From the NCBI GenBank assembly GCA_964554065.1, contig CAZKMQ010000002.1, positions 1-39,448 of the forward strand: a DNA stretch of 39,448 bases, in the 5' to 3' direction. Positions 2,748 to 27,071 of this stretch are shown here, one piece after another. Below the pieces are notes generated by a model. That model saw only the letters and a program-made list of their open reading frames with translations. It was not told where the DNA came from and made no database searches. The stretch's first letter is position 1; each line of letters begins with the position of its first letter. Source of the DNA: an uncultured Gammaproteobacteria bacterium. Its GTDB lineage: Bacteria; Patescibacteriota; Patescibacteriia; Magasanikbacterales; JBBTQS01. Position numbers and translations under genes: made by a program.

Positions 2748-4076
2748 ATGTCTGACTCGAAAGAGAAAGACCGTCGGCCTCGTCGTCCTCGACAAGGTCA
2801 GAGTAGCGGTGGTAACATCGCATCGTCAATTGCAGGCTGGCAGTTCCAAGGGACTGATCCAGCAGGAGTGAACCTGCTCGAGCAGGTTCGCGAGAATCTT
2901 CGTGCGCGGGAGGAGTCTGAATCGGAGGAGCAGGAAAATCGTGCTCCGTTCAAGGTGCAGCCGCCGGAGATGGTGGAGTGCACAATGGATGATTGCGACA
3001 AGGAAGGTCCTTTTCTTTTCCGCAAGGCCTCCACTCCGAGAACTGACAAGATCGCCTTGTTCCTTCACAAGGACGAAAGCGATCTGACCGCTGATGACAT
3101 CCTTACCGTGGCTACGTGTCGTCGGTGTGGTCGTCGTTCCAAGAACACGTCGCCCATCGTGACCGTCTGGCGCATTGTCGTCGGGTGTATCGGTGACGAG
3201 GAGGGTTTCAGGCCTCGGCGGGGGAAGGATTCGCAAGTCAAGACTCGCAAGCCGAGTCGGGCAGAGCAAATCCGTCAGCAGAAGCTGGAAGAAGGCGGAA
3301 AGGAATGTGGTCAGAAAGGGTGTCAGTTCGTACTGATGCCTGATCAGGTTCGGTTCCCCAGTGATCTTGGAGAGCTGGCATCAGTTGCTGGCGTCGAGGT
3401 TGGGGAGTTGGGCTGCGATCACGTCTTTGACTTGATTCGGTGCAAGAAGCACTTCAAGCCGACCTGGGGTATGGACTTTCGCAGCAAAAGCGTGACTGAT
3501 TACCAGAGTACCAAGGATGGTATTCTGGCGGCACGTGAGTTGGTTGAGATCGAGGCTCAGGAAGAGCTCGCGGAGTGTGAGCAGCAGGCCAAGGCCAAGG
3601 AGGCTCGGCTTGCCAAGAAGAAGGAGCTTCGTGAGGCTCGACTTGCTAGCAAAGCGTCTGCTCCTAAGAAGGCAGATGCTGATGCTCATCGCAAGACTAA
3701 GGGGCGTCGTGCTTCCACCAAGAAGCGCAGTTCTCGTCCGCGATCTTCTGGTGGTGACAAGGGGGGTGGCTCTCGTCACTCTTCCGGAAAGGCGCATCAA
3801 GCACCTAGCTTGAGCTCATCGCAGCGAAGTGATGACGAGCGACAGCCGAGAATCTGGATCACGAAGGCTTCGCAGCCTGTGGTCACGAAGATCTCAGGTC
3901 TTTCGAAGATCGCCATGGAGATCAGCTCCATGAGTCTGGATACTGATGACCTGAGTCAGGAAAGCGCAGATGCGCTGGCTTGGGCAAAGATGTTCGTCTT
4001 GGCGGAGAAGTTCGGAAGCAGCACGAAGAAGCTGCATCCGCCACAGATGGTCGTCGAAATGCTCACCGTCAACTAA
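2748..4076 (+). CDS. GC-rich hypothetical protein with two Cys-rich zinc-ribbon-like modules, a charged coiled-coil and a basic low-complexity region (paralog B)
   Basis: AGGAGGG lies 8 nt upstream of the ATG. Module 1 is CTMDDC...LTADDILTVATCRRC, which aligns with paralog A. Module 2 is CGQKGC...CDHVFDLIRCKKH. The middle is K/R/E-rich (AKAKEARLAKKKELREARL, KTKGRRASTKKRSSRPRSSGG). Confidence 0.7.
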   Translation: MSDSKEKDRRPRRPRQGQSSGGNIASSIAGWQFQGTDPAGVNLLEQVRENLRAREESESEEQENRAPFKVQPPEMVECTMDDCDKEGPFLFRKASTPRTDKIALFLHKDESDLTADDILTVATCRRCGRRSKNTSPIVTVWRIVVGCIGDEEGFRPRRGKDSQVKTRKPSRAEQIRQQKLEEGGKECGQKGCQFVLMPDQVRFPSDLGELASVAGVEVGELGCDHVFDLIRCKKHFKPTWGMDFRSKSVTDYQSTKDGILAARELVEIEAQEELAECEQQAKAKEARLAKKKELREARLASKASAPKKADADAHRKTKGRRASTKKRSSRPRSSGGDKGGGSRHSSGKAHQAPSLSSSQRSDDERQPRIWITKASQPVVTKISGLSKIAMEISSMSLDTDDLSQESADALAWAKMFVLAEKFGSSTKKLHPPQMVVEMLTVN

Positions 4077-13240: not shown

Positions 13241-13272
13241 AAAGCCCTCGACTAATGGTCGGGGCTTTTTGG
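13241..13272. terminator. Bidirectional intrinsic terminator
   Basis: The stem is agccc(t)cgac/gtcggggct, flanked by aaaa on one side and ttttt on the other, between convergent genes. Confidence 0.75.
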
Positions 13273-13293
13273 TTAGTGGTTTTTTTGTTTGGA

Positions 13294-13743
13294 CTAGTTG
13301 TCCACCCAACGGCATGGTGGGAATCCGGTTCTTGGGATTTTCACCCGGTCGATTCGCATGGCTAATGAGCGAATGTTATGTTCCGGGTTGCTGTGAATGT
13401 GCCGCGCTAGAGCCACTTCAACATCGCAGCGCATGGAGATGATCTCTATCTCGTAGTCATAGTTGCGGCCATGTGTGAAGTATGGAGAAATTTCCCAGAG
13501 AGCTATGTTGCAGTTGTCTACAACGATACACTCGCGGCCTTGCTTGACAGCATGAACGAACTTACTCCAGCAGTACATGTGTGCTTGAGTGAGTTCCTCT
13601 GGGTTGAAACGGAATTCTCCAGAGATCGAGTCGATGAAGTACCTGTCGGCACTGCATACTGTTGCGTCTTTGAAGTGTTTTTCTTGGTAGTGAGTTTTCC
13701 CAGAGCCGGGAATACCACGCATGATCTTGATTTGCTTGGCCAT
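13294..13743 (-). CDS. P-loop NTPase / nucleotide-kinase-like protein
   Basis: The start is set at MAKQIKIM, preceded by GGAGGAC. A Walker A motif (GIPGSGKTH) is present. The small size of about 149 aa resembles AAA_33 / polynucleotide-kinase-like proteins, but the family assignment is tentative. Confidence 0.55.
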   Translation of the reverse strand: MAKQIKIMRGIPGSGKTHYQEKHFKDATVCSADRYFIDSISGEFRFNPEELTQAHMYCWSKFVHAVKQGRECIVVDNCNIALWEISPYFTHGRNYDYEIEIISMRCDVEVALARHIHSNPEHNIRSLAMRIDRVKIPRTGFPPCRWVDN

Positions 13744-13800
13744 TTTGTCCTCCAGTGCCCTAGGTAAAACAAGAAAATATAATAGCATGAAATTGGGATT

Positions 13801-13846
13801 TTGTCAAGCTATTGTACTTGACAAACAATCAAAAATTTGCTAGTGT
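13801..13846 (+). promoter_or_regulatory. Promoter (TTGACA-N17-TAGTGT) embedded in an 8-bp perfect inverted repeat
   Basis: The inverted repeat is ttgtcaag (13801-13808) and cttgacaa (13817-13824), and it overlaps the -35 at 13818-13823. Confidence 0.45.
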
Positions 13847-13999
13847 TATCTAGCTAATCCCAAGCGGGAGAAGCTACCATAATTCTGCGTAAAGTTCGTG
13901 GTCCGCTGTGAAACCGGCACGAGGTAGAGGCATGGGAAACATGTTGCGCTAAACCCGCAATGTAGTGAGAGTTTTTTACAATAGATAGAGAGGTGAAAC

Positions 14000-15379
14000 A
14001 TGACTGTTCGTACCGGTCGTGTAAGTGCCCAGGAGAAAGCGCGTCGCGAACGCGTTGCAGGAAGTCTTGCTGGTAAGTTCGGCAAAGCTACTGACATGAT
14101 TCTCCAGGGAAAGCGTACACCTGATCAAGCAAAAGTACTGGAGCGAGCGCTACAAGCGTTTCGTGATGGTCAGCTTGTGGGTGTTGTGTGTAGAGCGCAA
14201 ACCGCAGATGCAGCACAGCTGCAGCCAGTATTGTCACTTCTTGTGGCAGACTCGGCTATGCCTGATGATCTGAAGAAGTACTTCCGCCAACGTGGTGTGC
14301 GGTACATCGGTGAGATCTACAAGCTGATCTGGGATAATCGCGGTAAGGGCATGCGTGAGCGTCGTGAGCAAGTCTTTGACTTTCTTAAGTTGACGCTTGG
14401 TTTGCCAGAACAAGTGAACGTGGATGTGATGTGGCGGCCCCCATACTGGGACGATGCAGGATTCCTCGCTTTGCTGAACCAGCCTGTGGGCGCAGTGGTG
14501 ACTGATACTGGTTATTACGATCGCGGCAAGCATGGTAGAGGAAGCTATCGTCCAGGTCATCGTTGGATGTATGCTAGAAAAACCCGGATGCGTTTTCTGC
14601 ATGAAAAGGGTATTCACTACGCTGGTGACTATCTGCGGTCTGGTCGTGTTCCTGAACCTGGTTCCCATGGTACTACTCTGGGTGACTGGGGTATGGGATC
14701 GATTAAGAACAAGCAGTCCACCTTGCAGAAGAACAGTGGGTTGTGGGCTGCTGCGCTTGTGCCACTGGACTGGTCTGCTCCTAAGGAGATTCCGTCTGAG
14801 TGGGTGGAAGAGCTGCTGCTGATCGATCAAGAGATGGCAGAAGACGAAGCTCGTGCTTTAGAGCGTGAGCAAGAAGCACAGCGCAAGCATGAAGAGCAGT
14901 ACAATCTTGAAGAGCGTAAGCGCCGGGTGTTTGAAAAATCTCACGGATTGATTTATGCATTTCGAGCGTCTTTGGCTTCTCCTACTGACGTTTATGAGTA
15001 TCTAAGGGGGTTGAATCTCTTTCGGTCGGTGGATGAGCTCGAGATTTCTGTGCGTAACTCCATCACTTTGCGTAACGCCAGAATTCGTTTTGTTGGTGAG
15101 CTGGTCTGTAGAACTGAAGCGGAGTATCTCAGGTTCAAGAATTCTGGTAGGAAGTCCTTGAAGGAGATCAGGGAAGCTCTTGCAGAGATGGGGTTGTCCT
15201 TGGGGATGTTCCAGGATCCGATTTCGCTGGGTTACCTTAATGCGGTTCTGAGTGTTTGCAAAACAGGTGTTTCATCTGCGCAACAAGACTACGAGTTGAT
15301 CAAGGGTGCTCTTATCAAGCATAGAGCGGCGACAAATCCTGATCCACTGGCTGAAGCGTGGGAGGACGCTGAAGAGTAG
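14000..15379 (+). CDS. GC-rich hypothetical protein with a C-terminal RNA polymerase alpha-subunit CTD-like (helix-hairpin-helix) domain
   Basis: GAGGTG is the SD. The C-terminal segment [60 protein letters not shown] matches the RpoA CTD pattern (LELSVRxxNCLKxxxIxxIGDLxxxTExELLxxxNxGKKSLxEIKxxLxxxGLSLG). A sampled line is 57% GC. Confidence 0.65.
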
Positions 15380-15402
15380 TAGTCTAGCATCGTAACTAAC
15401 AA

Positions 15403-15440
15403 GGCCCAAGCAGCAACAACTGCTTGGGCCTTTACTTTTG
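15403..15440 (+). terminator. Intrinsic terminator
   Basis: The 11-bp perfect stem ggcccaagcag/ctgcttgggcc is followed by tttacttttg. Confidence 0.8.
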
Positions 15441-15468
15441 TCTGGTTTTTCGCCACAATGGAGTCACT

Positions 15469-18363
15469 ATGGAGAAATACGATTTTAAAAAGTCTGAGAA
15501 AAAGTGGCAGAAGTATTGGGAAAAGCATGGCACATTTCGTGCGCATGATTTTAAAATGGATAAGCCAAAGTATTATCCGCTTGTTGAGTTTCCTTATCCA
15601 TCAGGAGTTGGTTTGCATGTTGGTCATCCGCGGCCGTATACTGCCTTGGATATTGTTGCGCGCAAGCGGCGTATGGAGGGATATAATGTATTGTTTCCAA
15701 TTGGGTGGGACGCGTTTGGTTTGCCAACAGAAAATTATGCGATTAAGACAGGTCGGCCGCCTGCTGAAGTTACTGCTGAAAATATTGCGAATTTCACAAA
15801 GCAGATTAAGTCTCTTGGTATTGGTTTTGATTGGTCGCGTGAGGTTAACACAACGGATCCATCATATTATAAATGGACGCAGTGGATTTTCTTGCAGTTA
15901 TATAAGGAGGGGTTGGCATATAAAGCGAACATTCCAGTGAATTGGTGTTTGAGTTGCAAAATTGGACTGGCAAATGAAGAGGTTGTTGATGGTGCGTGTG
16001 AGCGTTGTGGTGGTGAGGTGGAAAAGCGTGACAAAGAGCAATGGATGCTTGCGATCACAAAGTATGCTGATCGCTTGCTTGAGGATTTGGACACTGTAGA
16101 TTATATTTCGCGCACAAAAGTTCAACAGAAAAATTGGATTGGAAAAAGCGAAGGTGCTGAATTGGAATTTGCTATTGATGGAAGTGATGCAAAGATTCGT
16201 GTGTTTACAACTCGGCCAGACACATTATTTGGCGCTACGTATATGGTGCTCGCACCTGAGCATGAATTGGTGGAAAGTTTGAAAGAAAAAATAACTAATT
16301 GGGCGGCAGTTGAAAAATATCGCAGCGCCTCACGCAAAGTTAAAGAAATTGACCGAGTGGCTGAAGGTCGCGCTAAGACCGGTGTTGCTTTGGAGGGTGT
16401 TTTTGCGGTGAATCCTGCAAATGAGGAAAAGATTCCTGTTTGGATTGCAGATTATGTTCTTGCATCATATGGAACTGGTGCGATTATGGCTGTGCCAGCG
16501 CATGATGAGCGGGACATGGAATTTGCAAAGCAATTTGATTTGTCCGTGGTCGAGGTTGTTGATGAGGATGGCGTATTGGTGAGCTCAGGTGAATTCGATG
16601 GATTGGATTGGGAGGATGCAAAATGGGCGATCACTAAAAAAGTTGGTGGTAATCGCACTACGCAGTTCAAGTTGCGCGATTGGGTTTTTTCACGTCAACG
16701 ATATTGGGGTGAACCGATTCCTTTGGTGTATTGTAAAAAGTGTGCGGATTGGATTGCATTACCCGAAGATCAGCTTCCACTTGAGTTGCCAATTGTTGAA
16801 AAGTACGAGCCAACAGATAATGGTGAGTCTCCGCTTGCGTCTATTGACGATTGGGTGAAGACAGAATGTCCGAGTTGTGGAGGGTCTGCACGACGTGAAA
16901 CAGATACAATGCCGAATTGGGCAGGGAGCAGTTGGTATTTTTTGCGGTATACTGCAGCGGATGATGAGTTATTTACGCGTGAGAAATCTTGGCAGCGCGA
17001 TTCAATCGAGCACAACGAACATGATGCTGCGGTTTGGGAGACATTTTTGAAAGTGCGTGAGATTGCAAAGAATGAGGGTGTGGACTTTTGGGTGTGTGGC
17101 AGTCTTATGATAAATGCTTTGAATCGCAGTGTGTGGGAGCACATGGATGATCTAGATATTCATGTGCATGGTTGTGATTATGAAAAATTCATTGCTGCAC
17201 TTGTTGGTGCAGGAATGGTTGAAAATAATCGTCGTGAAGGTAGCGTGCAAATTACACATGGTCAGGTTGATGTTGAATTGGTTGAAGTAATTGATGAAGG
17301 TGGTGATGACTATTCTTATTACAGTAATGGGCAGAAGATTCTGATGGCGCATAATGATTTGGAACATGTTGAGCGTGGTTTGTTAAATGGAGTTTCTTTC
17401 AGAACTGTATCGCCATATCATGCGTTATATCAATATACATATTTGAAAAAATATTTTGAGCGTGCAAAGGAGGGTGATGAAGATAAGAAAAAGTTTTTGC
17501 ATGATTATTTGAGTGCGCCAATTAATTATTGGATGGGTGTGGATTGGTACAATGGTGGCATGGAGCACACGGTTTTGCATTTGTTGTATTCACGGTTTTG
17601 GAATAAATTCTTGTTTGATATTGGTGTTGTGCCGACTTCGGAGCCTTATAACAAGCGTACAAGTCATGGATTGATTTTGGCTAAGGGTGGTGAGAAAATG
17701 AGTAAGTCGCGCGGCAATGTTGTGAATCCTGATGAGATCGTGGAAAAGTATGGTGCTGATGTGTTTCGCATGTATGAAATGTTCATCGGGCCGTTTGATC
17801 AGGCAGCTCATTGGGATCCGCAAGGGCTTATGGGTGTGAAACGTTTTATTGATAAGGTTTGGAAGTTGCAATCCAAGGTTGAAGATGCTGAGCAGGATGA
17901 TGTGATGTTGCAGAAAGTGAATTATCTTATTCACAAGGTTAGCGTAGATGTTGAGGCAATGCGATTTAATACTGCAATTTCTGCCATGATGGAATTTGTT
18001 AATTATTGTTCGGGCCTTGATGAGGTGCCGTTGTCTTCAATGCGCTTGTTAGTTAAGGTGTTGTCTCCGTTTGCACCACATATGGCTGAGGAGTTATGGG
18101 AGAAGTGGGGTGATAAAGAATTGTCTATTAGTAAATCTGATTGGCCGCGTGCAAATCCTGACTTATTGATACTTAGTGAAGTTACATATGCGGTTCAGGT
18201 CAATGGTAAGTTGCGTGCAACAATCACAGTTGATGCAGATGTTCCGGAAGATGAAGTGCAGGAATTGGCTTTGGTGCATGAGAAGGTTGTGAAATGGTTG
18301 GATGGCAAAAAACCCAAGAAGGTTATTTTGGTAAAAGGTAAGATGGTGAGCATTGTTGTGTAA
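15469..18363 (+). CDS. leuS: Leucyl-tRNA synthetase with a large inserted domain
   Basis: Motifs are PYPSGVGLHVGH (HIGH), the CP1 editing domain (TRPDTLFGATYMVLAPEH) and KMSKS. The start is set at MEKYDFKKSEKKWQ. About 175 extra residues lie between SSWYFLRY and YNGGMEHTVLHLLYSRFW. Confidence 0.95.
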   Translation: MEKYDFKKSEKKWQKYWEKHGTFRAHDFKMDKPKYYPLVEFPYPSGVGLHVGHPRPYTALDIVARKRRMEGYNVLFPIGWDAFGLPTENYAIKTGRPPAEVTAENIANFTKQIKSLGIGFDWSREVNTTDPSYYKWTQWIFLQLYKEGLAYKANIPVNWCLSCKIGLANEEVVDGACERCGGEVEKRDKEQWMLAITKYADRLLEDLDTVDYISRTKVQQKNWIGKSEGAELEFAIDGSDAKIRVFTTRPDTLFGATYMVLAPEHELVESLKEKITNWAAVEKYRSASRKVKEIDRVAEGRAKTGVALEGVFAVNPANEEKIPVWIADYVLASYGTGAIMAVPAHDERDMEFAKQFDLSVVEVVDEDGVLVSSGEFDGLDWEDAKWAITKKVGGNRTTQFKLRDWVFSRQRYWGEPIPLVYCKKCADWIALPEDQLPLELPIVEKYEPTDNGESPLASIDDWVKTECPSCGGSARRETDTMPNWAGSSWYFLRYTAADDELFTREKSWQRDSIEHNEHDAAVWETFLKVREIAKNEGVDFWVCGSLMINALNRSVWEHMDDLDIHVHGCDYEKFIAALVGAGMVENNRREGSVQITHGQVDVELVEVIDEGGDDYSYYSNGQKILMAHNDLEHVERGLLNGVSFRTVSPYHALYQYTYLKKYFERAKEGDEDKKKFLHDYLSAPINYWMGVDWYNGGMEHTVLHLLYSRFWNKFLFDIGVVPTSEPYNKRTSHGLILAKGGEKMSKSRGNVVNPDEIVEKYGADVFRMYEMFIGPFDQAAHWDPQGLMGVKRFIDKVWKLQSKVEDAEQDDVMLQKVNYLIHKVSVDVEAMRFNTAISAMMEFVNYCSGLDEVPLSSMRLLVKVLSPFAPHMAEELWEKWGDKELSISKSDWPRANPDLLILSEVTYAVQVNGKLRATITVDADVPEDEVQELALVHEKVVKWLDGKKPKKVILVKGKMVSIVV

Positions 18364-23569: not shown

Positions 23570-23590
23570 ATTTGACCGATCTGATACTAT
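23562..23590 (+). promoter_or_regulatory. Promoter (TTGACT-N17-TACTAT) for rplJL
   Basis: Hexamers and spacing were read directly. The site overlaps the end of pyrH. Confidence 0.5.
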
Positions 23591-23595
23591 ATTTC

Positions 23596-23696
23596 CATCG
23601 CCACAGACAGCAGGCAATTAATAAGACCTGCCGAGGTATAAGCTCCCGCTTTAATATATTGGGATAGGTCGGCTTTATCGATAACTGTGGCAGATG
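23596..23696 (+). promoter_or_regulatory. Candidate L10(L12) ribosomal-protein leader structure
   Basis: A long-range closing stem pairs catc-g-ccacag (23596-23606) with ctgtgg-c-agatg (23685-23696). An internal hairpin is gcagg...cctgc. The position directly 5' of rplJ matches the known autoregulatory leader location. Confidence 0.35.
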
Positions 23697-23717
23697 TGTC
23701 ATAGTTTTTTGTTTTTT

Positions 23718-24245
23718 ATGGCTAAAACACGACAACAAAAAGAAGAGGCAGTACGTGATCTTACAGATACTATTAAAAAAAGCAAGGCAGCAGTCTTTGC
23801 ATCGTTTAGTGGTGTTACTGTAGGGGATGCGCAAACATTGCGTCGCGACTGTCGCAAAGAAGATGTACAATACTTGGTTGCAAAAAAGACCATCATGAAT
23901 TTGGCGTTTAAAAACGCTGGGTACAGTGATGTGGATACCAAACCATTTGAGGGTAATGTTGCAGTTGCCTTTGGTATGGGAGACGAGGTTGCATCAGCAA
24001 AAACATTACACACATTTGCCAAAGCGCACGAAGGGTTCACCATCTTGGGTGGAATTCTTGAAGGGCGCTATATTAACGCTGACGAAGTGAACGCACTTGC
24101 GAAACTTCCAAGTCGTGATGAGCTTTTGGCAAAACTGGTTGGATCTATTGCAGCTCCAATGTCAGGATTTGTAAATGTGTTAGCTGGTGTGCCACGCAAT
24201 TTTGTACAGGTATTATCTGCAATTAAAGATGCCAAAGAGGCATAA
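23718..24245 (+). CDS. rplJ: 50S ribosomal protein L10
   Basis: The start is at [12 protein letters not shown]. The L10 sequence is typical and the gene lies immediately upstream of rplL. Confidence 0.9.
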
Positions 24246-24736: not shown

Positions 24737-24767
24737 AAAGAGCGCCCCGAAGGGCGCTCTTTTTTTA
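24737..24767. terminator. Bidirectional intrinsic terminator
   Basis: The hairpin aaaagagcgcccc gaa ggggcgctcttttttt lies between convergent genes. Confidence 0.8.
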
Positions 24768-27071
24768 CTCTTCTTGAGTAATGTGTCCAAGTTCGAACTG
24801 TCGCAACTCGGTGCCAGCAAGTATCAGTCCAATATTTTTTCGCTCATCAATTGCAAAATCTCGTAGTGATTCCAGATCATCAAAAATGTATTGCACTTGG
24901 AGTTTACCGTCCTCCTTATTAAATACAGCAATTCTTTTTTCCGCAGGATCAAAGATGTACAGCCACTTTGATTCAAACATTGTCCAAATTCGTGTCGCAC
25001 TTTCAAATGATGGGTCAATTCCACCAAGTGTGTACTCTTGTTTCTCACCTTTAGCGTATTGATTGACAGAGCCATCATTGTTGAGCGTCCAAATTAACCC
25101 ATCAATTGTAAAGTTAATTGCATTGGCTAGGTCCGGTGTGCCCTTAGCCCATTGTGTTCCGCTTCCAAATCCTTCTTGGTGGCGTCCGTGCTTGAAGATT
25201 TGGTTTTGTTCTGCTACCAATGTATATAGACGATCGTTGTAAACAAGTGAGTCAGTTATTGCGCCTGCGCCAGGAATATCAAATTCATAAAACTCGTCAT
25301 CAGCTGTGTACTTCCATTGCAAAGCGCTTTCATTAGCGCCATCAATGAAGAATACAAGATCTTCATCAGTTGCAAATGGCACAAGTTGGCCACCTAGAGT
25401 TTCGGTTGCTGTAATTTCCGTACCACGTTCACGCGCTAATAAATTTCCTTCGTTATCATTTACAATAACAAGACCAGTTGTAAGGCGAACATGTTGTGGT
25501 TCGTTCAATCTATATTCAATAGTATTTATAAGTAGGGAAGTGCCTACGTGTTCAGCATGACGAATCTTTTCTTTCAGGTCATCGATGCGCACAGCCAGAC
25601 GGGCAATGGTTTCTTTTTCATCACGCGAGTCAGCAGTTAGGTTTTCCATGCGTGTAATAACGTCATCAATTATCTCGCGTGTTCTGTCTTCTTCATTAAA
25701 GATGAGATTGGATTCAGCAGCGCTGAGCTTAGATTCAATAAGTGAGACCTGAGCTTGGTATGCTGCACGCTTTATCTCTTGAGTTTTGTTGTATTTAAGC
25801 ACGCTCACACTTATAAAGAAAATAATAAGCAAGACAACTCCTGAACTCATAACTATCTTATTAAGCATCGATAGTTTGCCAAAGCGTTCACTTGTTGTTT
25901 CCCATGCATTAGTAAACATTCGTTTCCAGTGGTCAACAAACTCACTGCGCCTTCCACCAAGATTGGTGATTACATAGAAAATAGTTTGCACTACAGTAAC
26001 AGTTGCTACAAATAACCATTTAAGTAGAGACCATACCCACTTACCTGTAACAACTGCTCCTATTCGTGAGTACCTAGCACTGGTGTGTAGTGCTCCTTTA
26101 GCGGCAGCCTTAGCTTGTTGTTTTGTGCGGTTGCTGTATGAGTCAGAAGAAGATTCACGTGATGATTTACGTTCTTCTAACTTGGAACGTAGACGTCCGA
26201 GCACTGATGGTGCAAGCGTCTCTTCTGTGTTTCGTGCTGTGGTAAGTAGGTTGCTGAGTGATTCTACCGGCTTGTTCTTGTTGCTTTTTTTGGTTTTGGT
26301 TTCAGGTGTGGGTGCGTTACGTTCAAGAAGTAGCCCACCAAAAGAAAATCCATTATCAACGTCCTCTAGTGTGTTTTGGAATTGCTTGGTTGATTTTTTC
26401 GGTGGTTTGCCTGATATAAGATTAGTGATTTGCTTGCTGGTAAACCCATCCTCAACATGTGGCGTGCAAAAGAGCACTCGATCTCCAGGGTGAATATCTC
26501 CGGAGATAATATTGTTGAAAAGTTGCTCGTCATCTTCGGTGCTGCCACCTTCTATTATTGCCATCGCACTGTAGTCACCACTTTTTTTGCTATAAGCAAC
26601 AAATCCCAATGGTTCGCCACGTACTGCAAATGATAATGTTGTCTCATTTACAAATCCAACAACAATATGTATTTCTTCTTCATTTGCTTCTATTTGCTTG
26701 AGCAGGGTGTCGCTTTTCTTGTTGATTCGCTCAAGTAAATGCTCGAAGTGTACTGCAATATCTTTGTTCCGAAGTGTTTCATCATAGAATCCAGTCTCCA
26801 ATTCTTCGATCCAGCGATTTAGCGCTTCAATGGTTTTGTAACTGGCTTGGTTGGCCTCAGCCACCATAAATAGGTATCCGCGTCCGTTCTCCTCAGGGTT
26901 TGCTGGTTCTGTGATATGCAAAATAACCTGTGAGCTCTCTGCATCACGGCCTTCTATAAAGAATTCGTGTATATCGATATTGCTTTCAAATCCCTTCATA
27001 GCTTTGACGGGTGGTGGTGTCTCCATTATACTAGAGCTACTATATTGCGCAATGGCATTTTGAGTAAACAT
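24765..27071 (-). CDS. Large membrane protein with an N-terminal PP2C/SpoIIE-like domain, a basic linker, TM helices, a coiled-coil and a beta-rich C-terminal domain
   Basis: IHPGDRVLFCTPHVEDGF resembles the PP2C xGDxLLLxTDG motif. Two hydrophobic helices are WVWSLLKWLFVATVTVV... and IVMSSGVVLLIIFFISVSVL. The C-terminal roughly 280 aa are beta-propeller-like. The start is uncertain (27071, or Met16 at 27026). Confidence 0.5.
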   Translation of the reverse strand: MFTQNAIAQYSSSSIMETPPPVKAMKGFESNIDIHEFFIEGRDAESSQVILHITEPANPEENGRGYLFMVAEANQASYKTIEALNRWIEELETGFYDETLRNKDIAVHFEHLLERINKKSDTLLKQIEANEEEIHIVVGFVNETTLSFAVRGEPLGFVAYSKKSGDYSAMAIIEGGSTEDDEQLFNNIISGDIHPGDRVLFCTPHVEDGFTSKQITNLISGKPPKKSTKQFQNTLEDVDNGFSFGGLLLERNAPTPETKTKKSNKNKPVESLSNLLTTARNTEETLAPSVLGRLRSKLEERKSSRESSSDSYSNRTKQQAKAAAKGALHTSARYSRIGAVVTGKWVWSLLKWLFVATVTVVQTIFYVITNLGGRRSEFVDHWKRMFTNAWETTSERFGKLSMLNKIVMSSGVVLLIIFFISVSVLKYNKTQEIKRAAYQAQVSLIESKLSAAESNLIFNEEDRTREIIDDVITRMENLTADSRDEKETIARLAVRIDDLKEKIRHAEHVGTSLLINTIEYRLNEPQHVRLTTGLVIVNDNEGNLLARERGTEITATETLGGQLVPFATDEDLVFFIDGANESALQWKYTADDEFYEFDIPGAGAITDSLVYNDRLYTLVAEQNQIFKHGRHQEGFGSGTQWAKGTPDLANAINFTIDGLIWTLNNDGSVNQYAKGEKQEYTLGGIDPSFESATRIWTMFESKWLYIFDPAEKRIAVFNKEDGKLQVQYIFDDLESLRDFAIDERKNIGLILAGTELRQFELGHITQEE

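Follow-up and report, generated by a model that had tools for sequence, protein, structure and literature searches.

What does the C-terminal domain (CTD) of the RNA polymerase (RNAP) α subunit do in a protein that is not an α subunit? Bacterial activators and UP elements classically recruit RNAP by contacting the α-CTD, which, to our knowledge, occurs almost always once per genome, on RpoA. The question is raised by one gene of contig CAZKMQ010000002.1 (GenBank assembly GCA_964554065.1), of which we analyzed positions 1 to 39,448 of the forward strand; this whole stretch of 39,448 nucleotides (nt) is called the window below. A preliminary description, made from the letters of the window alone, had reported an open reading frame (ORF) at 14000..15379 (+) for a stand-alone protein of 459 amino acids (aa) ending in an α-CTD-like domain, and the ORF was found exactly as reported. 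The protein consists of a helical N-terminal module (d0), two pseudo-CTDs (d1 and d2), a charged helix of ~60 residues, a canonical α-CTD (d3), and a tail, and it is one member of a so far undescribed family whose genes lie on Patescibacteria-like contigs. We tentatively favour, at a little less than an even chance, a role as a trans-acting α-CTD factor at A/T-rich promoter-upstream DNA, where it would be a helper or competitor of RNAP.

To identify d3, the protein was compared with domain models, known sequences, and known structures. PF03118 (RNA_pol_A_CTD) was the sole Pfam domain of the protein and matched aa 340–396 with an E value of 2e-14 and 53.5 bits (gathering cutoff, 23.8); the α-CTD segment quoted in the preliminary description corresponds to aa 347–403. 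The NCBIfam rpoA models aligned by their last ~65 positions only, scoring 28–83 bits against cutoffs of 228–523. A phmmer search against the Protein Data Bank (PDB) matched more than 40 α-subunit chains, with the Caulobacter α-CTD 9zum_A at the top (E 1.3e-15). The full protein was modelled as a monomer with AlphaFold2 (AF2) from the 125-sequence family alignment, giving a mean predicted local distance difference test score (pLDDT) of 86.8. In this model, d3 adopts the four-helix double helix-hairpin-helix (HhH) fold (helices 351–359, 365–369, 373–377, and 384–396; pLDDT >93), and Foldseek superposed it on the E. coli α-CTD 3n4m_C with a template modelling (TM) score of 0.88, a root-mean-square deviation (rmsd) of 1.4 Å, and 48% identity. 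These results indicate that aa 340–404 are a genuine RNAP α-CTD. Two of the checks proposed with the preliminary description, Pfam and AlphaFold, came out in its favour, with a highly significant PF03118 match and a predicted α-CTD fold. The domain does not end the protein as had been described, since a helical tail of 55 aa follows it; this tail is common to the closest homologue only.

The rest of the protein, which had been said to resemble nothing recognisable apart from two weaker HhH-like segments, is largely explained as d1, d2, and the long charged helix. The family alignment was split into d0 (aa 25–79), d1 (80–168), d2 (190–262), and d3 (336–405), and each module was run by hhalign against a profile built from the C-termini of 118 genuine RpoA proteins, with 40 column shuffles and reversed alignments as controls. 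The module d1 matched the RpoA CTD with a probability of 95.8% (E 6.6e-9, 69 columns) and a score of 47.2, compared with 16.5 for the best shuffle. The module d2 matched d1 with a probability of 92% (E 6e-7, 56 columns; score 30.6, best shuffle 11.3) and the RpoA CTD with a probability of 60% (E 9e-5, 47 columns; score 25.4, best shuffle 11.6). The reversed alignments scored below the shuffles. Furthermore, the "GWxPPYW" stretch of d1 aligned with the W-P-P tail that follows the α-CTD in RpoA. Pfam detected neither d1 nor d2. When all PDB sequences were searched with a hidden Markov model (HMM) built from the N-terminal region, only four matches reached E ≤5. Three of these were α-CTDs, namely 2max_A on d1 (E 0.008), 4noi_A (E 0.05), and 9zum_A on d2, the last not being significant. 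A separate AF2 model of aa 25–290 (pLDDT 84.5) gave Foldseek matches that were all non-significant (E ≥0.57) and nearly all to α subunits or RAD51-type HhH domains. The profile comparisons with their shuffle controls, the PDB matches of the HMM, and the individually non-significant Foldseek matches together indicate that d1 and d2 are degenerate α-CTD-derived modules, that is, remote homologues of the PF03118 domain. The two weaker HhH-like segments are real, being the cores of d1 and d2.

The modelled helices of d1 (89–97, 103–106, and 116–131) and d2 (196–202, 208–213, and 232–241) mirror in their order helices 1, 2, and 4 of d3 (351–359, 365–369, and 384–396), with helix 3 being a loop. In the hhalign alignment, d1 has an Asp at the position of E. 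coli R265, and the second hairpin, G296-K298-S299, is replaced. The module d2 is basic on average (family mean net charge +3.3), and the isoelectric point (pI) of the whole protein is 9.1. The module d0, with AF2 helices at 10–35 and 41–55 (pLDDT >90), had no hhalign match to the other modules or to the RpoA-CTD profile and no detectable relative outside the family. The long helix carries a net charge of −7, and family members differ in the linker between d2 and the α-CTD, which is as short as 4 and as long as 178 aa; judging from the model, the helix may be a spacer or a dimerisation element. No catalytic domain was found that could be the "other activity" which, according to one suggestion of the preliminary description, an α-CTD might tether to DNA.

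A homology search with the whole protein was dominated by RpoA CTDs and found one full-length relative, and a search with aa 1–338 alone found P0121 (46% identity) and P0002. In an exhaustive phmmer scan of 1.84 billion cluster representatives, 126 passed E ≤1e-3, and 58 of these also passed E ≤1e-10. One apparent member, P0166 (3183 aa, 11 matching stretches), was spurious, being a Big_7/PKD repeat protein. The family is characterised by the motifs ALQxFKExRL, YLxxxGxxYVGE, LGLPxxxDxxxGWxPPYWxD, HxxGxxxxGxxL, and LxAxxxxPxxWxxPxxxPxxW. Pfam detected only PF03118 in the 125 aligned members, in 41 of them, and no Pfam, NCBIfam, PHROG, or PADLOC model covers the N-terminal 339 aa. The one member with a source name is labelled "hypothetical protein", and no description of such a family was found in the literature on α-CTD-like, stand-alone, or PF03118 proteins and on rpoA of the candidate phyla radiation (CPR). 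Narrow peptide patterns found no family member among the GTDB species representatives, which is not evidence of absence. The identical window protein was present on 5 contigs from at least 3 samples.

The d0-d1-d2 core was present in nearly all family members. Among the 118 members with d2, a recognisable α-CTD follows d2 in 44, 43 are too short, being truncated or ending at d2, and 31 have another C-terminus; the α-CTD is carried by 44 of the 75 members with room for a C-terminal domain. Many of the 31 end in a "...GLxLGM"-type sequence and, as far as their sequences tell, look like further-diverged CTDs. From these counts, the family is constant in its d0-d1-d2 body, and the α-CTD is the predominant head. 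Two short divergent paralogues without d0 (280 and 260 aa) were observed in tandem on the metagenome contig L100 (7869–8711 and 8850–9632); in the second, an α-CTD-like segment directly follows d2 and ends the protein.

We examined the residues of the α-CTD known to make contacts in E. coli. The 265 determinant (R265, N268, C269, N294, G296, K298, and S299) binds the minor groove of UP elements in E. coli, and the 261 determinant contacts sigma region 4. Window numbering equals the E. coli α position plus 87, as taken from the PDB phmmer alignment, and conservation was scored over 40 family α-CTDs. The window protein keeps R265 (R352; 36/40 in the family), G296 (G383; 36/40), K298 (K385; K or R in 37/40), N294 (N381; 26/40), S299 (S386; S or T in 28/40), and E261 (E348; E or D in 30/40). 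Two residues are changed, namely N268, which is Ile355 in the window protein and is kept in 27/40 family members, and C269, which is Thr356. Part of the 287 determinant is also kept (T372, E373, and E375, corresponding to E. coli T285, E286, and E288), and positions 287, 289, and 317 vary among the family α-CTDs. This pattern indicates purifying selection on the UP-element and sigma region 4 contacts. DNA binding by the family α-CTDs is plausible because R265, N294, G296, K298, S299, and E261 are conserved across the family.

The window α-CTD is 71–74% identical to genuine RpoA CTDs, the named sources of which are metagenome-assembled genomes (MAGs) of the Bdellovibrionota, Myxococcota, and Desulfobacterota type, and only 51–56% identical to the other family CTDs, including that of P0121. 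The N-terminal region of the window protein is 46–49% identical to that of P0121. The RpoA-like identity of the window CTD may reflect a strong constraint towards the RpoA consensus, a domain replacement from rpoA, or sampling bias.

The features of the gene are summarised in Table 1. The gene is autonomous, having its own Shine-Dalgarno-like sequence, its own terminator, and a divergent upstream neighbour. The conserved start (MTVRTGR in the window protein and MSAHTGR in P0121) parallels that of the homologue. A terminator had been described as a perfect 11-bp hairpin; the terminator is there, with a longer stem. The gene had also been credited with a promoter of its own, of which candidate boxes were found inside the 211-nt divergent intergenic spacer, as weak consensus matches only. 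The upstream region of the window gene (13789–13999) and that of P0121 (contig L005, 4500–4737) were observed to have in common a CTTGACA box, a -10-like stretch, and a "CAGGAGGTGGRGRCAYGG"-like segment. The upstream 150 nt folded no better than shuffles (z −1.2), which gives no sign of a structured 5′ leader, and Rfam had no match in the upstream region.

Table 1. Features of the α-CTD-bearing gene and its protein in the window.
Feature	Position	Strand	Basis or remark
Complete coding sequence, stand-alone triple α-CTD-type protein, 459 aa and stop	14000..15379	+	
Shine-Dalgarno-like sequence GAGAGGTG	13988..13995	+	4 nt 5′ of the ATG at 14000; read off the sequence
Candidate sigma-70-like promoter region, TTGTCA-17-AACAAT, plus TTGACA at 13818	13801..13846	+	9/12 consensus scan; weak
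d0, aa 25–79, helical N-terminal module with ALQxFKExRL	14072..14236	+	Family alignment, AF2
d1, aa 80–168, degenerate α-CTD-like module (L..YL...GVRYIGE ... LGLP ... W.PPYW.D)	14237..14503	+	hhalign
d2, aa 190–262, second degenerate α-CTD-like module (R..H..GIHYAG..L ...)	14567..14785	+	hhalign
Long E/R/K/Q-rich helix, aa 266–324, few hydrophobic positions	14795..14971	+	AF2 single helix, pLDDT 92–97
d3, canonical α-CTD, aa 340–404 (E. coli RpoA 253–317)	15017..15211	+	Pfam, phmmer, Foldseek
C-terminal helical acidic tail, aa 405–459	15212..15376	+	AF2 helices 407–421 and 427–445, lower pLDDT
Intrinsic-terminator-like hairpin, 13-bp stem (8 GC pairs), 6-nt loop, T-rich tail	15401..15432	+	22 nt past the stop codon

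As described before, the gene stands outside an rpoA context, between a P-loop kinase gene and leuS. The upstream, divergent neighbour is an AAA_33 P-loop kinase-like gene (13294..13788, −), and leuS starts downstream at 15424 or 15469, with trx also nearby. The rpoA operon arrangement (rpsM-rpsK-rpsD-rpoA-rplQ) was not present at the locus, and the genes of the other family members likewise lie outside it. The GC-richness of the gene was likewise borne out, at 51.1% compared with 43.9% for the window and 42.8–43.8% for infB and leuS, and its per-domain GC content and GC content at third codon positions (GC3) gave no obvious chimeric junction. The gene and the divergent AAA_33 ATPase (GC3 57%) were observed to form a GC-richer two-gene islet (13265–15400), flanked by terminator-like hairpins at 13246–13264 and 15401–15432. 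The AAA_33 ATPase matches PHROG 2071 (E 5e-22) and the PADLOC model CARF-PDDEXK-AAA (E 2e-12).

The gene content of the window (among others, pyrF, HU, RNase Y, truB, infB, trx, leuS, comEC, L10/L12 with leader, mreB, holB, frr, and a proS-like gene) includes an MreB that is 79–81% identical to the MreB of MAGs labelled Magasanikiibacteriota, Uhrbacteria, and Patescibacteria. On this protein similarity, the host is a Patescibacterium, an ultra-small CPR bacterium, near Magasanikbacteria/Uhrbacteria. Several other features of the window were observed. The neighbouring leuS (ORF 15424..18363) has a ~190-aa insertion between the two halves of the catalytic core (16930–17493), which matches PF10706 (Aminoglyc_resit, nucleotidyltransferase fold) with an E value of 2.2e-6 and 28.3 bits (cutoff 21), an insertion of this kind being unusual among class I aminoacyl-tRNA synthetases. 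Two ORFs at 1745–2440 and 2748–4076 (+) are GC-rich (60 and 56%, with GC3 of 79 and 61%; genome, 44%) and K/R/S-rich with Cys-x-x-Cys-type motifs; they had no Pfam match, no convincing PHROG match, and no significant mutual similarity. The Rfam L10_leader (RF00557) was found at 23583–23720 upstream of rplJ-rplL with 45.3 bits (gathering score 44). A 768-aa ORF without Pfam matches follows L10_leader/rplJ-rplL on the opposite strand (24765..27071), and this arrangement recurs in contig L090.

Elsewhere, the family genes are single and lie among housekeeping genes. The contexts include positions by an SMC-like gene, after ftsH, by an ABC transporter, near the L19 and CCA-adding-enzyme genes, and beside L10/L12 in a neighbourhood like that of the window. 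In two unrelated contigs (L091, 2219–3442, and L092, 4423–5778), the gene directly upstream of the family gene encodes a DEAD-box helicase; the L091 member has the α-CTD and the L092 member has an alternative C-terminal domain. The AAA_33 neighbour was not beside family members in any other context examined.

Is the gene a functional unit of its own? Its GC content, 51.1% compared with about 43% in its neighbours, and an α-CTD whose nearest RpoA relatives come from organisms of the Bdellovibrionota, Myxococcota, and Desulfobacterota type could be expected of an artefact or remnant, such as an rpoA that was mis-split or became a pseudogene, or a fragment that was acquired horizontally and has no function. 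Such an origin has next to no probability in our view, because the frame is intact with a Shine-Dalgarno sequence and a terminator, the protein has no α N-terminal domain (NTD; PF01193 or PF01000) and is flanked by ORFs for the AAA_33 kinase and LeuS, conservation of the N-terminal 339 aa extends over 126 clusters, and the identical protein recurs in contigs of separate samples. In particular, a mis-split rpoA, a possibility raised in the preliminary description, is ruled out by the missing NTD, the conserved N-terminal family, and the autonomy of the gene; the N-terminal 339 aa are found in more than 100 clusters, and no α-NTD ORF lies nearby. We also consider it very improbable that the protein hijacks or monitors host RNAP on behalf of a phage, a mobile element, or a defence system. 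The GC-richer islet with an ATPase matching a PHROG and a PADLOC model is what could suggest this, but the window protein itself matches neither PHROGs nor PADLOC, the AAA_33 neighbour is unique to the window locus, and the flanks are housekeeping genes. Moreover, tblastn against phage records gave only rpoA contaminants of bacterial origin, scans of IMG/VR found no family member (the sole motif match, L096, was a collagen-like tail-fibre ORF and due to chance), and no structural match was found in BFVD. A phage, plasmid, or defence origin was rejected on these results.

The trans-acting role that we tentatively favour can be outlined as follows. The family would have originated by triplication of the RNAP α-CTD and degeneration of two copies, d1 and d2, which have kept the residues that determine the fold (the "YIGE" hairpin, the "GL..G" end of helix 4, and the "W-P-P" tail) and have given up the DNA-contact arginine and the second hairpin. 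The modules d0, d1, and d2 would form a compact N-terminal body, and the third, near-canonical α-CTD, with its minor-groove determinant kept, sits at the end of the ~60-residue charged helix. The α-CTD head would bind A/T-rich, UP-element-like minor-groove DNA in trans at promoters, possibly adjoining sigma region 4 via the E261 equivalent. The pseudo-CTD body would offer an interaction surface through which the protein associates with itself or touches RNAP or a factor. RNAP would either gain an additional upstream anchor or find the sites of its own α-CTDs occluded. A more specific form of this proposal, in which the protein is, in Patescibacteria of this lineage, a dedicated trans-acting "third α-CTD" whose head both reads UP-like DNA and contacts sigma region 4 and whose body docks on RNAP or on itself, appears rather unlikely to us.

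Several observations weigh against a promoter role. A 9-member subgroup has an unrelated C-terminal domain in place of the α-CTD, and because of this swap the N-terminal body may carry the primary function. No conserved operon partner was found in the family contexts examined, and these contexts gave no link to RNAP, sigma, or any promoter. In addition, Ile355 and Thr356 may weaken DNA binding by the window protein. The same lack of a conserved link to transcription genes is consistent with an architectural, nucleoid-associated protein that works independently of RNAP, in which the α-CTD, perhaps with the basic d2, binds the minor groove without specificity, DNA segments are bridged or spaced with the help of the long helix, and no dedicated promoter role exists. 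HhH domains are established as generic, non-sequence-specific DNA binders, and the conserved DNA-contact residues, the charge of d2, and the pI of the protein all agree with such a function. Against it speak an E or D at position 261 in three quarters of the family α-CTDs and the 71–74% identity of the window domain to RpoA CTDs, which suggest a constraint beyond simple DNA binding, as well as the Asp at the R265 position and the diverged second hairpin of d1. The family is also rare, unlike most nucleoid proteins, which tend to occur throughout a lineage, and the window has HU genes of its own. We regard the architectural function as unlikely, although it deserves serious consideration. The near-canonical surface of the head, together with the retained 261-determinant and part of the 287-determinant residues, could also serve as a protein-interaction decoy or adaptor that mimics the RNAP α-CTD and captures activators, NusA-type factors, or sigma region 4 rather than DNA, so that these partners are titrated or relocated. 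The preliminary description had already suggested that a free α-CTD mimic could compete for activator contacts, or for UP elements. The strongest conservation in the family is, however, at the DNA contacts R265 and G296/K298, which a pure protein decoy would not need, residues 287, 289, and 317 are variable, and no partner gene is linked. A decoy function is distinctly improbable on this evidence.

The closest known system is the α-CTD of RpoA (TIGR02027/PRK05182). The fold of aa 340–404 is that of the RpoA α-CTD (PF03118), the identity is 48–55% to the domains of E. coli and Caulobacter and up to 74% to those of deltaproteobacterial type, and the equivalents of all the conserved contact residues listed above are kept, with Ile in place of N268. 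The modules d1 and d2 are its remote homologues, including the W-P-P tail. Unlike RpoA, the window protein lacks the NTD (PF01193, RNA_pol_L, and PF01000), lies outside the rpoA operon, and has 339 family-specific aa with the ~60-residue helix where RpoA has a short flexible linker before the CTD. Because no α-NTD is attached, the protein is not an RNAP core subunit. Francisella possesses duplicated α1 and α2, which both have NTDs, are complete α subunits, and pair as a heterodimer within the core enzyme (PDB 6wmp, PMC3294249). The likeness would be a second α-CTD gene per genome, if the window organism has a canonical rpoA; the window protein differs in that it lacks an NTD and has three modules of the CTD type. 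A survey of 49 bacteria, a CPR lineage included, reported exactly one RpoA homologue per species (PMC12641261). Precedents for an α-CTD outside RpoA are PRK14906, a β′ subunit with a C-terminal α-CTD-like stretch, and PRK07758, a stand-alone protein of ~95 aa. Both models matched aa 344–401 weakly (15 bits against cutoffs of 1437 and 115, respectively), the window protein does not belong to PRK07758 (NF005841; 14.7 bits against the cutoff of 115), and the two precedents lack both the d0-d1-d2 body and tandem modules derived from the CTD. The N-terminal domain of RAD51/RAD51C, NusA AR1/AR2, the C-terminal domain of TfoX/Sxy, and ComEA are likewise small (HhH)2 bundles. Such bundles serve non-specific DNA binding or protein docking. 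RAD51 N-terminal domains were among the weak Foldseek matches of the N-terminal model, but none of these modules gave a significant sequence or structure match, and d1 and d2 resemble the α-CTD specifically, including the W-P-P tail.

The family would represent a module that was taken off the polymerase and triplicated, with two copies degenerated and the third keeping its DNA contacts under selection at the end of a long, rigid helix. The pseudo-CTD pair would be an example in nature of an HhH DNA-binding domain that became a protein scaffold. Should the protein prove to be a nucleoid protein, its family would nonetheless contribute a clean domain architecture for which the databases currently have no model. 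CPR bacteria have a very small and largely unknown regulatory repertoire. Were the dedicated "third α-CTD" true, it would be a global, tunable regulator of promoter strength for reduced genomes poor in transcription factors, and a reader of upstream elements evolutionarily uncoupled from the polymerase core. If the protein is active at promoters, the family would add a new way in which CPR bacteria control transcription globally.

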